Below are positions 10,729 to 17,181 of a stretch of 32,602 bases of DNA, in pieces. A program made the translations under genes and the position numbers. The DNA comes from a virus. Its lineage: Duplodnaviria; Caudoviricetes. Location: the IMG/VR virus record IMGVR_UViG_3300027708_000214, positions 1 through 32,602 of that record. One strand, 5' to 3'. The notes beneath the pieces were generated by a model. That model was not told the origin of the DNA. It did not search any database and saw only the letters and a list, made by a program, of their open reading frames with translations. The first letter of the stretch is position 1. Every line of letters begins with the position of its first letter.

Positions 10729-11088
10729 CTATTTTAGGAATTTGAGTTTATATGTTGTTTGGTCGATCAATGCCTGGATTTCATCACATAGGTTTTGGAT
10801 TTCACTATCCTGCGGAAGGTCTTTGCGTCCTTCAGAAAAATAGATGCCTAGCGTTACCAGTTCTTCTAGTCCGGTGGCTGCTGGCCCGTGGTAAGTCACG
10901 GGGAAGGTCGGAACTGTCTGGTACTTGCCCATCATGGATTCTGTCAGAGTGTCAACCAGATCGGACAATTCATCGTAAAACTCACCTAATGCAATATGTT
11001 CCGAATAGGTCGGGGCTTGCCAATGCAGGATATGGGTGTTCGTAATGCTGTGCAGCAATGTAAGAATAAAGTCGCCGATCTTATCCAT
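10729..11088 (-). CDS. Dps/ferritin-like protein (DUF5856-like)
   Basis: HILHW...SEH.ALGEFY..L..LVD.L.E ferroxidase-like pattern and C-terminal YKLKFL. Confidence 0.75.
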   Translation of the reverse strand: MDKIGDFILTLLHSITNTHILHWQAPTYSEHIALGEFYDELSDLVDTLTESMMGKYQTVPTFPVTYHGPAATGLEELVTLGIYFSEGRKDLPQDSEIQNLCDEIQALIDQTTYKLKFLK

Positions 11089-11458
11089 GATGTATTCCCA
11101 GGTGTTTGAGTACGTTTCTAGCAGCTTCTACCTTCCAAGGTTTAAGGCTGATGCTACGGGCGATTTTAAGCCACTCCACGACCTGTTGGCTATAAGCCTG
11201 GTAGTAAATGGTTTCTTTTTCTTCTTTGCTGGCTGTGCCTTGATCCAGCCATTGGTGGCAGAAGTGACACCCCCACACCGTATCGGCATCTGATGCCTTG
11301 ATGCCTTTGCCCTTGCCATTGGAGCCGGAATTGCTGTGACAGGCCACAATTGTGGAAGACCCCCCCGTGCAAAAATTTGGCACTTGTAACAGGCAATGCT
11401 GGTCTTCTGCTAGTTTTAGTAGGTCTTTATTTCTGTAATAGTCGTGTTTTTCAATCAC
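11081..11458 (-). CDS. DUF1364/YbcO-like Zn-binding putative nuclease
   Basis: C..Q.P..C......V.CH......GKG.K..D.....GC..CH..LD signature. Confidence 0.8.
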   Translation of the reverse strand: MIEKHDYYRNKDLLKLAEDQHCLLQVPNFCTGGSSTIVACHSNSGSNGKGKGIKASDADTVWGCHFCHQWLDQGTASKEEKETIYYQAYSQQVVEWLKIARSISLKPWKVEAARNVLKHLGIHHG

Positions 11459-11459
11459 A

Positions 11460-11750
11460 TCATTCTCCAGCCAAAGTTAATCCTAGGGTGGATAAGAGGG
11501 CTTATCTCACCTGCTCCAATATGTAAATATGTATCCAATGCCTACCAAAACCATACAAACCAATATACATATCCAAGCTGCGCTGGACGGGTTAATTCAC
11601 TTATACACAAGACCTAGTTTCCACCTGAGTTATCTTGTGCTTTACCAGTCGGTTAACCAACGCTGGTCGCCTTTTGCATCGGGGTGTGTCGATGTGCGGT
11701 GTTTATCGGGTTCAGTCCATGCAGACCATTTGCTATCGCGCCCTGACGGC
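11460..11750 (-). ncRNA. Candidate structured non-coding RNA or long leader
   Basis: No credible ORF; hairpins at 11644-11667, 11606-11639, 11527-11572 and 11487-11511. Confidence 0.45.
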
Positions 11751-11759
11751 CTAGAACGC

Positions 11760-11864
11760 AAAAAAGCCACTTTCTACTGCGTTCTAATGCTGCCACACTA
11801 GTTCCTTTCGGAGTAACGCATGAGAAAATGGCCTCATGTTTTGTCTTGTGTGGCAGCACTTGAC
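11760..11864 (-). ncRNA. C4/CI-like antisense RNA with upstream target hairpin
   Basis: 13-bp outer stem ending in a U-run, 6-bp inner stem, GAAA tetraloop hairpin, and a hairpin with loop UGGCAG complementary to loop CUGCCA of a 5' hairpin. Confidence 0.65.
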
Positions 11865-11870
11865 GGGGAA

Positions 11871-11876
11871 ATTATA
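11871..11876 (-). promoter_or_regulatory. Sigma70 -10 box for the RNA element
   Basis: Perfect TATAAT 6 nt upstream of the first hairpin; -35 is poor. Confidence 0.5.
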
Positions 11877-12042
11877 TACGCATTTCTATGCGCTTGGTAT
11901 AACTTCTAAATGCTGGCTTTGGTGGCTTATCTTGCCCACATGAATGCTTATTTGCTTCTTGTAGTGCTTGGAAAGGCCAATTGCATTTAGTGCATACCCA
12001 ATAAGGTGGCTCAGGACGGGGAGGATTAACTTGTTTAAGCAT
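11872..12042 (-). CDS. Small zinc-finger-like protein (56 aa)
   Basis: Not in the ORF track. MLKQVNPPRPEPPYWVCTKCNWPFQALQEANKHSCGQ... (CxxC-x12-HxC), GAGGTGG RBS, TAATG coupling. Confidence 0.65.
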   Translation of the reverse strand: MLKQVNPPRPEPPYWVCTKCNWPFQALQEANKHSCGQDKPPKPAFRSYTKRIEMRI

Positions 12043-12287
12043 TATTCCACCTCATAGTTTTCTAAAAAGAATTGAACAAAATTGTTGTCCATATCACCAT
12101 CTTTGTTTAACCGATCCTGAACCTCTTGAATGACTGACTTGGGATCATGGACTAATTCCGCTATGACACGGATGAGCATACAAACCCGTGCAAATTCTTT
12201 TTCGTACTGGCCTTCCACGACTTTAATTTCGTTTTCCATTTCCCGTACCAATGCTTGATAGGCTCGTTGTTCAATAGATTTGTTCAT
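12042..12287 (-). CDS. Hypothetical protein (81 aa)
   Basis: ATG at 12287 coupled to the upstream stop. Confidence 0.65.
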   Translation of the reverse strand: MNKSIEQRAYQALVREMENEIKVVEGQYEKEFARVCMLIRVIAELVHDPKSVIQEVQDRLNKDGDMDNNFVQFFLENYEVE

Positions 12288-12607
12288 TACATCTTCATTT
12301 CTGTTCGTTTGGTGTATTCCTGAGTCTTCCACACTTCCACTTTCATCTTGGCAGCTTCCATCAGGTACTTTAGGCGCTCTTCCTGTTCAACGGCAACTTT
12401 CATTGCGCTCAATTGCTCAAGATAACGCTCATGGCTGTAAGCATACTGCTCCTTGGCTCCAAGGCTGCTAGAGTCAGATTCGTTCATCAAAGTGGCTTTA
12501 ATCGCCTTTAAGTAGCCTTCAATGAATAGTCTGTCTGCTTTGGCCTGAGCGTAAGGCAAAGCGTTTTCTTGAATGAACACAATGGCTCGTTCTGGGTTAA
12601 TTTCCAT
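12287..12607 (-). CDS. Hypothetical coiled-coil phage protein (106 aa)
   Basis: AGGA RBS, helical heptad pattern. Confidence 0.75.
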   Translation of the reverse strand: MEINPERAIVFIQENALPYAQAKADRLFIEGYLKAIKATLMNESDSSSLGAKEQYAYSHERYLEQLSAMKVAVEQEERLKYLMEAAKMKVEVWKTQEYTKRTEMKM

Positions 12608-12614
12608 AAATTTC

Positions 12615-12839
12615 CTATAAATATTTGTCTACTAATGCCTGTAAACCAGCCTCTACGCTGCCATTACCCATCTCTTCTAGCGACAGACGTTGAAGGCTGT
12701 TTAAACGGACGTTGAACGCAGTCCCAACGGGTCTTGTCCTTGGTCTACCAGCACCTAGTCTTGCACCGCCCCAAGGCTTCTTAGGGCCTTGGAACTCTGC
12801 TTCTAGTCTTGCTTTTAGCCAGTCTGGTCTTGCTGCCAT
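12615..12839 (-). CDS. Putative DNA-binding protein (WGGARLGAGRP motif plus ribbon-helix-like segment)
   Basis: GG.R.GAGRP motif followed by a beta-strand/helix pattern (FNVRLNSLQRLSLEEM). Confidence 0.6.
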   Translation of the reverse strand: MAARPDWLKARLEAEFQGPKKPWGGARLGAGRPRTRPVGTAFNVRLNSLQRLSLEEMGNGSVEAGLQALVDKYL

Positions 12840-13840: not shown

Positions 13841-14026
13841 ATGAATGAAAAAAACGAACTTTATTCGGCTCAATCGGTGTTGAACAAAGCATCCGATTAC
13901 GCCTTTACACACTCAGAGAAACATGACCGTGAAGCCTCTGTAGTAGCAGTGCTAGTCCGAGCAATCGAACTGGCTACCGGTCGGAAAGTAAACATGGAGC
14001 GAATGTATGACATACACGACACTTAA
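13841..14026 (+). CDS. Hypothetical protein (61 aa), probably leaderless
   Basis: No RBS; ATG lies 6 nt after the -10 box. Confidence 0.6.
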   Translation: MNEKNELYSAQSVLNKASDYAFTHSEKHDREASVVAVLVRAIELATGRKVNMERMYDIHDT

Positions 14027-14207
14027 AGAAATCCAGTGCGAGGGGAAGCATCCCTATCCCACTAGAAATCTTGCCCAAGGGACGATAGACAGACGAAGGA
14101 TGGGTGGGCCACCATTGGAATCCTATCAATGTTCCCATTGTGGTTTCTACCACGTTGGACACGCGCAGCCCAAGAAGCAAAAGTTGCAAAAGTTTAGGGC
14201 TGAATAA
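14007..14207 (+). CDS. Small Zn-binding phage protein (66 aa)
   Basis: C.GK..Y...YQCSHCGFYH pattern, GGAG RBS. Confidence 0.7.
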   Translation: MTYTTLKEIQCEGKHPYPTRNLAQGTIDRRRMGGPPLESYQCSHCGFYHVGHAQPKKQKLQKFRAE

Positions 14208-14827
14208 TGCACTTTTATCCATTCAACATTGGGGACTACTACAGTCACACTCGGCATTTGTCCGAAATAGAAGACATTGCTTATCGTAGACTGTTAGATG
14301 CTTACTATCTCGCTGAACGTCCGTTGAACAGCGGCATTGCTTCTGTAGCACGGCAAGTAAATATGCGTGATTGGGAAGAAGAAGTTGGTGTCGTTTTGCA
14401 TGAATTTTTCGTGCTTACAGAGGCCGGTTGGGTCAACGAACGAGCCGACATTGAAATAGCCCGTTACAGAGCGAAAATCGAGCAAGCATCTAAGGCTGGA
14501 AAGCTGTCTGCGGAGCGTAGATTTAACAAGCCTTCAACGGACGTTCAACTAAACAAGAAACAAGAAACAAGAAACAATAGTAAGGCAATCACACCGCCTG
14601 ACGGCGTTTCTGTTGAAGTTTGGAACGAATTTGTGACTCACCGCAAGGCCAAGAAAGCCAGAGTCACTCCACTTGTGATCGACGGCATTGCCAAACAAGC
14701 AGCGAAGGCTGGATGGACACTAGAAAACGCCTTGAAGGAAATCATTGTTCGAAATTGGCAGTCCTTCAATGCCGATTGGGTCAAAGATAGCAAAGCAACG
14801 TATACACCAATGAAAGGAATTTTATGA
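14207..14827 (+). CDS. Replication initiator, YdaU/DUF1376 family
   Basis: N-terminus MHFYPFNIGDY...T.HLS..E..AYRRLLD.YY; C-terminal W.EF..HRKAKK...NWQSF.ADW domain. Confidence 0.85.
   Translation: MHFYPFNIGDYYSHTRHLSEIEDIAYRRLLDAYYLAERPLNSGIASVARQVNMRDWEEEVGVVLHEFFVLTEAGWVNERADIEIARYRAKIEQASKAGKLSAERRFNKPSTDVQLNKKQETRNNSKAITPPDGVSVEVWNEFVTHRKAKKARVTPLVIDGIAKQAAKAGWTLENALKEIIVRNWQSFNADWVKDSKATYTPMKGIL
14533..14578 (+). repeat. Putative replication origin inside the initiator gene
   Basis: Two TTCAAC copies followed by tandem AAACAAG x3 plus AAACAAT (14551-14578), in the inter-domain linker as in lambdoid origins. Confidence 0.55.
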
Positions 14828-15673: not shown

Positions 15674-16229
15674 AGTTTTAATTGCTTGCGAGTACAGCGG
15701 TACTGTACGGGATGCATTCATTGCTATGGGGCATGATGCAATGAGTTGTGATTTGCTGCCAACAGATGTTGCAGGGCCGCATTACCAAGGAGATGTTTTT
15801 GACATCATTAACGATGGTTGGGATTTGATGATTGCTCATCCTCCATGCACTCATCTTGCGGTTTCCGGTGCTAGACATTTTGCTGCTAAACAAGCAAGCG
15901 GTGTTCAGCAAGAGGCTTTAGCATTTGTTCAAGCCCTATTGGATGCACCGATTCCGTTTATTGCTCTTGAGAACCCGATTAGCATCATTAGCAGTCGTAT
16001 CCGCAAACCAGACCAAATCATTCAGCCTTGGCAGTTTGGTCATGGTGAAACGAAAGCCACTTGTCTTTGGTTGAAAAACTTGCCAAAGTTAGTGCCTACA
16101 GAAATTGTGGAGGGAAGAGAGGCTAGAGTTCACAAAATGCCACCTAGCCCATTACGCTGGAAATTGCGTTCAACAACTTATAAAGGCATAGCACAAGCAA
16201 TGGCAAAACAATGGAGTGCTAATGGCTAA
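15666..16229 (+). CDS. Short DNA cytosine-5 methyltransferase-like protein
   Basis: Motif I-like VLIACEYSG, catalytic HPPC, ENP, and C-terminal RS.TY.GIA.AMA.QW. Confidence 0.8.
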   Translation: MAKVLIACEYSGTVRDAFIAMGHDAMSCDLLPTDVAGPHYQGDVFDIINDGWDLMIAHPPCTHLAVSGARHFAAKQASGVQQEALAFVQALLDAPIPFIALENPISIISSRIRKPDQIIQPWQFGHGETKATCLWLKNLPKLVPTEIVEGREARVHKMPPSPLRWKLRSTTYKGIAQAMAKQWSANG

Positions 16230-17181
16230 TTTCATTCCTGACAACATTGACTTTTCGCAGTACCTTGCGGAGACGGACAGTAAGCAGAATGTCAAATCTG
16301 CCAATCTCTACATTCCGTCCATCAAAGAACGGATGAGAAGCATCTCTAAAGAGAAAAAACTTTGGATGCCTTGGGAGAAGACACGGGAATCGTTCTACTA
16401 TCGACCTGGTGAGATGACTGTCTATGCTGGCATGAACGGCCACGGCAAGTCTCAAGTAACGGCACAGATTGCTATGTCTCTGATGCAACAGGGCGAGAAG
16501 GTCTGCATGGCATCGTTTGAGATGAAACCCATTGAAACCATTCGCTTGATGAGCCGAATGTACATTGGCACGAATCCGTTCACAGAGGAGTACCAAAACG
16601 AAGAAGGCTTTGCGGTACTGGATGCCCTGTTTGACAAGTTCGGTGAGTGGTCAAATGACAAACTTTGGATTTATGACCAGATGGGCACGACCAACGTAGA
16701 AACAGTCGTTGGAATGACCCGATATTGTGGCAAAGAACTTGGCATAACTCATGTGTTTATTGACTCACTTATGAAGGTTGTTGGCTCTGAAGATGACATG
16801 AATGGGCAGAAGCAATTTGTTGGCGAATTGTTCAGCATAGCCAAGGATTTGCAACTGCACATACACTTGATACACCACATCCGAAAGCCTCAAAATGAAG
16901 CAGCATTGCCTGATAAATATGACCTAAAAGGCAGTGGTTCCATATCGGATCAAGTAGACAACATCTTTACTGTGTGGCGTAACAAGGGCAAAGAAGACGA
17001 TATGCGGAACGCTGGAAAGTTTGGTGGCAAGTCTGGTGAACACGATGGAATTTTGAAGTGCTGCAAGCAACGGCACTATGAAGGTTCAGGTGATGGTGAA
17101 CCGGCAATTGGTCTGTGGCTGCACAAAGACAGCGCACAGTTTTTAGGTAGTGCAACCGATTCACCGGCAGTCTATGAGTGA
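16222..17181 (+). CDS. DnaB/T7 gp4-like (SF4) replicative helicase without primase domain
   Basis: Walker A GMNGHGKS, SFEM, VFIDSL, HHIRK, DLKGSGSISDQVD, KQR. Confidence 0.9.
   Translation: MANFIPDNIDFSQYLAETDSKQNVKSANLYIPSIKERMRSISKEKKLWMPWEKTRESFYYRPGEMTVYAGMNGHGKSQVTAQIAMSLMQQGEKVCMASFEMKPIETIRLMSRMYIGTNPFTEEYQNEEGFAVLDALFDKFGEWSNDKLWIYDQMGTTNVETVVGMTRYCGKELGITHVFIDSLMKVVGSEDDMNGQKQFVGELFSIAKDLQLHIHLIHHIRKPQNEAALPDKYDLKGSGSISDQVDNIFTVWRNKGKEDDMRNAGKFGGKSGEHDGILKCCKQRHYEGSGDGEPAIGLWLHKDSAQFLGSATDSPAVYE

Follow-up and report, generated by a model that had tools for sequence, protein, structure and literature searches.

RNAs of the C4/CI type fold into a three-stem junction with a stable tetraloop hairpin. 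In the pT181 attenuator and the IncI-type pseudoknot, which employ counter-transcripts and control a Rep protein in plasmids, an antisense RNA determines whether termination occurs or a pseudoknot forms upstream of the replication initiator. For P4, passages of two reports (PMC4825925, PMC3632133) describe a processed CI RNA that pairs with seqA and seqC and terminates transcription of the replication genes. Origins made of RNA are also on record: according to a part of PMC3035462, the MRB plasmids of Vibrio carry an RNA-only origin with a small inhibitor RNA of loop specificity, and according to a part of PMC7157519, a non-coding RNA region replaces repA in the prophages of cluster A mycobacteriophages, which replicate extrachromosomally.

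Here we compare with these systems an RNA element on the minus strand of a 32,602-nt stretch of phage DNA (the window). The window, a phage record of 81% completeness, carries SU10-type portal and capsid genes. Its sequence matches G001, a complete 40,618-bp genome with terminal repeats, at 99.99-100% identity, and the 8 kb of G001 that are absent from the window hold virion-type genes. A previous reading of the window from its letters alone (the sequence-only reading) had described a C4/CI-like antisense RNA switch at this place. As judged from sequence comparison, the element is a member of a large, widespread and unnamed phage RNA family, carried by hundreds of freshwater phages. Our preferred reading, which we advance tentatively, is that it acts as a promoter-proximal CI-like attenuator limiting transcription into an RNA of about 270 nt predicted to prime DNA replication. 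What was observed directly, and what this reading starts from, is where the promoter lies, the two complementary sites and the stems, together with the non-coding RNA downstream and the genomic slot which that RNA occupies.

Parts of the switch

All coordinates given by the sequence-only reading were correct on the minus strand when re-read from the sequence. The parts are as follows.

11871-11876, minus strand: -10 box TATAAT, the module promoter; the -35 is poor in the window copy
11843-11864, minus strand: H1, 5' hairpin with the specificity loop CUGCCA (seqA-like sensor), from pairing and folding
11760-11835, minus strand: terminator-shaped domain of about 76 nt, with outer stem and U-run, inner stem, variable P2, and P3
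11835-11823 with 11775-11763, minus strand: outer stem; the U-run reaches 11760
11820-11815 with 11783-11778, minus strand: inner stem
11812-11803, minus strand: GAAA hairpin (P2), variable among homologues
11784-11801, minus strand: P3 hairpin presenting UGGCAG (seqB-like), the complement of the H1 loop; compensatory change in L002
11752-11760, minus strand: post-terminator UGCGUUCUA, a repeat of the inner-stem 5' strand

As had been noted, CUGCCA and UGGCAG, the two loops, complement each other exactly; the Watson-Crick match around them extends to 11 bp (11858-11848 with 11798-11788). Two 11-mer inverted repeats of this kind occur in the window, compared with a mean of 0.33 over 30 shuffles. 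The segment 11745-11870 folds with a z of -4.70 (0 of 200 shuffles were as good), and the terminator domain, which folds alone at -33.2 kcal/mol, is a candidate trans-acting small RNA of the CI-like kind. A consensus promoter scan did not call the -10 box at 11871-11876 and called no plus-strand promoter near the switch. The two covarying sites are on the same strand, so a counter-transcript would be unnecessary.

In the close relative L002 both loops are changed together, from CUGCCA/UGGCAG to CUGGCA/UGCCAG, and in the close relatives L003 and L004 the whole 11460-11890 unit is absent between the same flanking genes. On the upstream side, two ORFs in window positions 11872-12332 are missing from L002. 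A 56-aa ORF in this region has terminal residues nearly equal to those of the gene next upstream of the module in L002, and the -10 box overlaps the stop codon of this ORF.

A family of switches with covarying loops

Homologues were collected using search patterns that fixed the stems and not the loop words. The stem-based pattern matched about 410 IMG/VR stretches (119 fetched) and a stricter stem pattern about 410 metagenome stretches (121 fetched); an initial 16-nt pattern was discarded, 21 of its 23 matches being due to chance. From 302 pattern matches, 190 remained after an outer-stem filter and 146 were distinct, 145 of them with enough upstream sequence. All 145 contain a perfect duplex of at least 7 nt between the H1 region and the inner part. 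The sequence-only reading had suggested aligning homologues and checking the two loops for covariation, and the loops do change together massively while the stems are kept: with 102 new metagenome elements added, 243 of 247 have a perfect loop complement of 7-13 nt in a terminator-shaped fold, and the loop words amount to 67 different sequences.

Two subtypes can be distinguished. In the main one (127 of 145), which has a single inner hairpin, the target is a single-stranded bulge and not a hairpin loop, and the mean duplex is 7.75 nt for own pairs versus 4.81 nt for cross pairs; the kissing hairpins are therefore only a subtype detail. In the window's subtype (n = 18) the corresponding means are 10.33 nt and 5.39 nt. 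Across 20 close homologues of this second subtype, 100% of the cells in the loop-loop helix are paired and 5 of its 6 pairs have changed on both sides, which 0 of 500 shuffles reach; pairing drops to 40-48% in slid controls. The outer and inner stems are 99.7% paired in the same homologues and the GAAA hairpin 73%, with variable loops. Additionally, a sigma-70 -10 box is located 6-7 nt upstream of H1 in 120 of 143 members, whereas control positions have one in 11 of 139 cases; 62 family members also possess a -35 matching at least 5/6.

Rfam has no match to the switch, whether with the gathering threshold across the whole window or with E<=10 across 11000-12400, and among GenBank phages a family match was obtained in one record only. 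We found no account of the family in the literature; an unannotated listing in the supplements of PMC5737381 or PMC10690425 is possible, and six supplementary files of PMC10690425 gave no match to it. All 26 genomes with a strong model match contain a single switch locus each.

Other arrangements were observed in passing. One metagenome contig (L514) carries tandem switches at 354-461 and 1176-1272, with different words and an orphan initiator domain between them. At least three further architectures also join a 5' loop complementary to a later site with a terminal U-run (L045, L055, L083 and L146; L053, L056 and L067; L591:900-1030). By eye and uncounted, these precede the RNA called D1 below or, in L591, an O-like initiator; those scanned had no Rfam match.

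Folding of the transcript

When the window RNA was folded as a growing prefix, H1 formed first. For prefixes of 75-100 nt the minimum is a long helix between H1 and its target that also traps the 5' arm of the terminator. At 106 nt the terminator fold is the minimum (-38.5 kcal/mol, versus -35.5 kcal/mol at 100 nt), and at 122 nt the read-through fold has -46.0 kcal/mol. The fold drawn by the sequence-only reading is thus the minimum for a transcript ending at the U-run, but shorter and longer transcripts prefer H1 opened. Little energy separates the states, and the antiterminating one is the first to form, from which we infer that read-through is the default. With nested-only folding, all 144 transcripts that end at the U-run form the terminator, regardless of any block on the 5' part; the switch would therefore be kinetic or pseudoknotted, and the energies do not demonstrate it.

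A 9-bp pairing of the post-terminator repeat, proposed earlier as a competitor of the inner stem, stood in part. In the window's subtype it is 81.6% paired and its first 7 pairs are kept. Its covariation does not exceed that of shuffles (201 of 500), and the last two pairs fail in 13 and 15 of the 20 homologues. The repeat duplex reaches -14.1 kcal/mol versus -8.6 kcal/mol when shuffled in this subtype and gives no signal in the main one; on these modelled energies, the repeat may stabilise the read-through fold in the window's subtype only. As a family-wide feature the 9-bp antiterminator was not supported, there being no main-subtype signal and no covariation. In the main subtype, a modest pairing links the 5' half of H1 to the post-terminator region, own, cross and shuffled pairings giving -10.98, -9.09 and -7.16.

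A non-coding RNA behind the switch

The U-run is followed, almost always, by 200-300 nt of structured non-coding sequence. What the sequence-only reading had taken for a long structured leader is a separate conserved multi-pseudoknot RNA in the slot of a replication initiator, a point that it had missed. In the window this RNA (D1) has the following parts.

11470-11749, minus strand: D1 RNA, about 270-280 nt, multi-pseudoknot, non-coding; candidate replication primer or origin RNA
11590-11658, minus strand: D1 pseudoknot, 11658-11653 with 11595-11590, from covariation
11483-11625, minus strand: D1 bipartite loop, GGUGG at 11625-11621 and CUAG at 11617-11614, which complements the 3' boundary element

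D1 is found in about 130 IMG/VR stretches. Its 3' boundary element, CCACC-CUAG at 11491-11483, complements the bipartite loop with the order swapped, and the loop and boundary variants are concordant in 71 of 71 D1-type RNAs; 57 of the 71 end with CTATG or CTGTG. Over 42 sequences, pairing in the pseudoknot is complete (100% of cells), and 6 of its 6 pairs have changed on both sides. D1 is no more stable than its shuffles (z -0.26), hence its structure rests on covariation, and it has no Rfam match. The 42 non-redundant D1 RNAs share no reading frame. A small leader protein of the icd/kil kind was considered and rejected, since their lengths fall in all three frames (11, 12 and 19 of 42) and none is open in more than 11 of 42.

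Grouped by downstream RNA, 126 of the 146 elements fall into eight signature groups and 20 are classed as 'other'; D1 accounts for 45, a figure raised by the use of a D1 pattern in gathering part of the set. One of the groups corresponds to the Rfam motif Betaproteobacteria-1 (RF02932), in the sister modules L309, L478, L489, L280 and L477; the window is negative with its covariance model. By eye, a terminal CACC seems to complement an internal GGUG loop in the D3, D5 and Betaproteobacteria-1 types (L309, L250, L278), in the manner of D1. Closed-stem inserts were seen between the switch and the long RNA in L271:2607-2672, L046, L141, L159, L237, L276, L216 and L224, and one such insert has a tRNA match.

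Another Rfam motif, int-alpA, lies directly before initiator genes in L574:1417-1482, L580:1015-1082 and L582:1050-1114, and before an HNH gene in L012:1969-2034. Its loop complements the stretch adjoining the ribosome site, which suggests, from sequence, that int-alpA RNA may be a translational switch.

Carrier genomes and distribution

The window phage codes for a DUF1376 initiator, a DnaB-like helicase, RusA and Sak, and no partition genes were recognised in it. Three of its genes bear on replication or regulation.

14207-14827, plus strand: DUF1376 protein initiator, by profile match; a protein-based replication route is also present in the window phage
16216-17181, plus strand: DnaB-like helicase, by profile match
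12615-12839, minus strand: possible CopG/ribbon-helix-helix regulator, by ESM Atlas feature hits of 0.90-0.94

The complete twin genome G001 has no match to an HTH_3 repressor or a tyrosine integrase, in agreement with the earlier statement that no repressor is visible, but ORF 12615-12839, which has no Pfam or PHROG match, may resemble CopG/RHH regulators by language-model features, as a lead only. The proposal of an RNA-only control switch agrees with the covarying loops, the conserved promoter and the lack of HTH_3 and integrase matches in G001; it would function like P4 CI. At window positions 14007-14210, before DUF1376, we observed a CxxC-GxxH zinc-finger-like motif in another frame than the listed 66-aa ORF, possibly a frameshifted gene as far as the sequence indicates.

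We surveyed 48 large carrier genomes, 31 of them at least 90% complete. An integrase was found in 1 of 48 and in 1 of the 31, HTH_3 in 9 (4 above cut-off) and DUF1376 in 7 of 48 and 4 of 31 near-complete genomes. The same 31 yielded HTH_36 in 2, DnaB in 5, family A polymerase in 0 and phrog_1408 in 1 (already counted). In 15 of 31, phrog_270 was matched by its C-terminal part only, mostly in frames of 120-180 aa and mostly beside the module. With four initiator profiles searched, 6 of the 31 thus have a full initiator, 15 an orphan half and 10 neither (one further weak N-terminal hit, in G195, was not counted). Orphan half and full initiator never occur together in the 31 carriers (Fisher's exact test, p 0.018, ignoring relatedness). 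For the orphan C-terminal domain, the predicted model is moderate (pLDDT 72), the PDB gave no match, and weak matches point to replisome-organiser and DUF1376 proteins.

All five relatives without a detected module (G207-G210 and G003, two of them incomplete genomes) have a full DUF1376 (p 0.0012, ignoring relatedness). Left out of these controls were G211 and G212, which carry a switch, and G213-G215, which were chosen by their initiators. In seven complete carriers the module lies between recombinase and RusA where both are seen, and the 141 scanned of their 300 called early-region ORFs include no full initiator, primase, helicase or polymerase. Given that L003 and L004 lack the module and that 6 of 31 carriers have protein initiators, the module appears dispensable where a protein initiator exists. 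The one carrier with an integrase, G178, also has two HTH_3 genes; its locus L170 holds a diverged switch of the window's subtype about 1 kb from the integrase, missed by the family model.

Among 115 GTDB pattern matches, 7 were genuine, all on contigs of 7.9-30.8 kb and 5 in betaproteobacterial bins, a distribution that gives a hint of the host and speaks against routine integration; of 151 family genomes, one gave a strong model match, on a contig already among these. A search of 72,556 plasmids with four modules gave no match, and no fetched metagenome locus has terminal repeats, so the origin reading is without support from a Rep-less plasmid. In a freshwater RNA run (n = 1), an unstranded 190-nt contig spans 11640-11829 with the L002 loop variant; it may come from library DNA. 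The same run gave 9 contigs over 20 kb, mostly short and divergent, and the gaps are uninformative. We give this expression evidence little weight.

Proposed mechanism and alternative explanations

We propose a mechanism in three steps. In a naive cell, nascent H1 would pair with its target in cis before the terminator closes, leading to read-through. A terminated or processed short RNA would then accumulate and bind the H1 of new transcripts in trans, upon which the terminator would form; the loop word would set specificity groups (immunity or incompatibility). These two steps, which amount to a CI-like attenuator with a trans-acting product RNA, we consider quite probable. In the third and weakest step, the read-through RNA would be an R-loop primer or origin that replaces or supplements a protein initiator. 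Granted the first two steps, we lean slightly towards this candidate RNA primer or origin. In its favour are the direct passages from switch to initiator gene (3 of 166), the orphan initiator domain behind 14 of 140 switches, the scarcity of full initiators among carriers and the RNA-only origins on record. In the window phage, the module would be a second, optional route beside the protein initiator, possibly for a carrier state. The wider proposition, that an abundant group of freshwater betaproteobacterial phages replicates from interchangeable, protein-free RNA replicons, in which a structured primer RNA would grip its own origin, gated by a same-strand antisense attenuator with dozens of incompatibility groups, is one that we put forward with more reserve than the attenuator reading of the window.

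The alternative that survives best, though we think it unlikely, is that the switch is a trans CI-like attenuator of the downstream operon, serving immunity or superinfection exclusion, and that the 250-nt RNA is a translational activator or a put-like antiterminator leader. In the window, the genes behind the module are the following.

11081-11458, minus strand: YbcO-family nuclease (PF07102), the first gene downstream in the window, no constant partner of the switch
10729-11088, minus strand: DUF5856 / Dps-like gene, an incidental neighbour

Both P4 and IsrK regulate operons, as part of PMC4825925 describes. The 3' element of D1 abuts an SD-like GGAG and an ATG, and the conserved ATG/GTG at this end opens an ORF of at least 50 codons in 27 of 62 cases. 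Against an operon leader, in 33 of 62 the frame from this ATG/GTG runs for fewer than 15 codons, a fresh sigma-70 promoter follows the D1 RNA in 5 of 71, and the first downstream genes are unrelated. More specifically, among 140 elements with 800 nt of downstream sequence and counting only queried genes, the first gene is the orphan initiator C-terminal domain in 14, capsid in 12, Dps-like in 7, YbcO in 4 and RusA in 3; HNH, methylase and PAPS reductase genes also come first behind switches. That the YbcO-like and Dps-like genes are the targets, as the sequence-only reading implied, was not supported, since the first gene varies from capsid to HNH to methylase; both are incidental. Direct switch-to-protein cases do exist: an SD and an ORF of at least 55 aa follow the switch directly in 3 of 166, and all three lead to an O-like or DUF1376 initiator, one of them via a 78-aa ORF. 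A fourth direct case (L458) has a 52-aa ORF, which is below the length cut and not an initiator. Among relatives of the L516 and L470 initiators, 0 of 20 loci carry a window-type switch, which argues that most initiator genes are not under it. An operon leader would also leave the scarcity of full initiators in carriers unexplained.

We find it improbable that the module is a mobile non-coding RNA cassette (moron) whose 250-nt RNA acts on the host as a ribozyme, decoy or scaffold and is dosed by the switch. Its own promoter, its variable location, its presence or absence among close relatives and the tRNA-like inserts between switch and RNA would suit a moron, as would the listing of Betaproteobacteria-1 as an sRNA in Rfam; its single copy per genome, its frequent slot between recombinase and RusA and its interchange with initiator genes would not.

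A shade less probable again is a pairing confined to cis, in which a co-transcriptional timer or a pseudoknot would hold read-through at a fixed fraction and no trans-acting small RNA would exist. The cis pathway alone accounts for the folding order, and no second target site is found downstream. Such a device would have no obvious need for 67 words in exposed loops beside near-invariant stems; we infer, from part of PMC3035462, that such a variety of words is characteristic of specificity groups. That the element is an ordinary terminator whose inverted repeat arose by chance, for which one could cite the one other 11-mer inverted repeat of the window, is refuted by the covariation in 243 of 247 homologues and has a negligible probability.

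Returning to the attenuator with a primer RNA, its consequences would be considerable. If the RNAs are primers, they would add another class to the RNA-primed replicons, and the first in which antisense control acts from the same strand; they would also account for DNA copying in many complete freshwater phages without a recognisable initiator, helicase or polymerase, as well as for how these phages may persist without integrating. If true, RNA replicons would allow plasmid-like carriage and superinfection immunity without an integrase or a CI repressor, and a function would be assigned to the orphan Betaproteobacteria-1 motif and to several unnamed 250-nt RNA families. On the conservative reading, phages have here a new RNA regulator that is very common; its 67 natural specificity words would be a ready set of orthogonal RNA attenuators, and immunity groups could be predicted from sequence.

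Comparison with known systems

Placement of the switch within C4/CI, as originally proposed, was not sustained: there is no model match, no second downstream target and no icd, kil or ant gene. The models compared were RF01695, c4-2 and IsrK; c4-a1b1 has no Rfam accession. None of C4 (RF01695), c4-2 and IsrK matches in the window, at gathering or at E<=10, C4-type models give no match in 60 homologous or related loci, and RF01695 gives none in five genomes at E<=10. The complementary target upstream in the same transcript, a seqA or a1b1 feature of C4/CI, is present. A second target like seqC or a2b2 was not detected, the 6-mer recurring within 280 nt in 10.9% of own versus 14.8% of cross comparisons (220 elements), and no icd, kil or ant(ash) genes were found downstream of the switch. 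The window copy has the three-stem junction with a tetraloop hairpin; among its close homologues P2 is only 73% paired, with variable loops, and the main subtype has one inner hairpin. As in P4 seqA/CI, P1/P7 C4 and Gifsy-1 IsrK, a same-strand small RNA from its own leader, here a candidate of about 76 nt, complements a 5' hairpin; unlike in C4/CI, the intrinsic terminator fold itself contains the antisense site, what lies downstream is a structured RNA or an initiator and not icd, kil or ant, and the carriers almost never have an integrase.

The module resembles ColE1 and MRB in being a protein-free unit of about 430-500 bp with a long structured RNA and a candidate small inhibitor RNA of loop specificity (parts of PMC3035462 and PMC8683028). 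The ColE1 origin region ends with CCTATG and the CTATG end of D1 is similar, a likeness of 5-6-mers that serves as a lead only. Whereas RNA I of ColE1/MRB is transcribed from the opposite strand, the switch has both its sites on one strand, and termination seems to be the means of control. Rfam RNAI and PAGEV gave no match, and four modules showed no DNA similarity to any of 72,556 plasmids. The mycobacteriophage RNA origins differ in lying beside parABS in actinobacterial phages with repressors, and the part of PMC7157519 cited here describes no antisense switch. Finally, Betaproteobacteria-1 (RF02932) is found directly behind the switch family and int-alpA (RF02996) before initiators in related phages. 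The switch and D1 of the window match neither, and these two orphan motifs are here given a genomic context.
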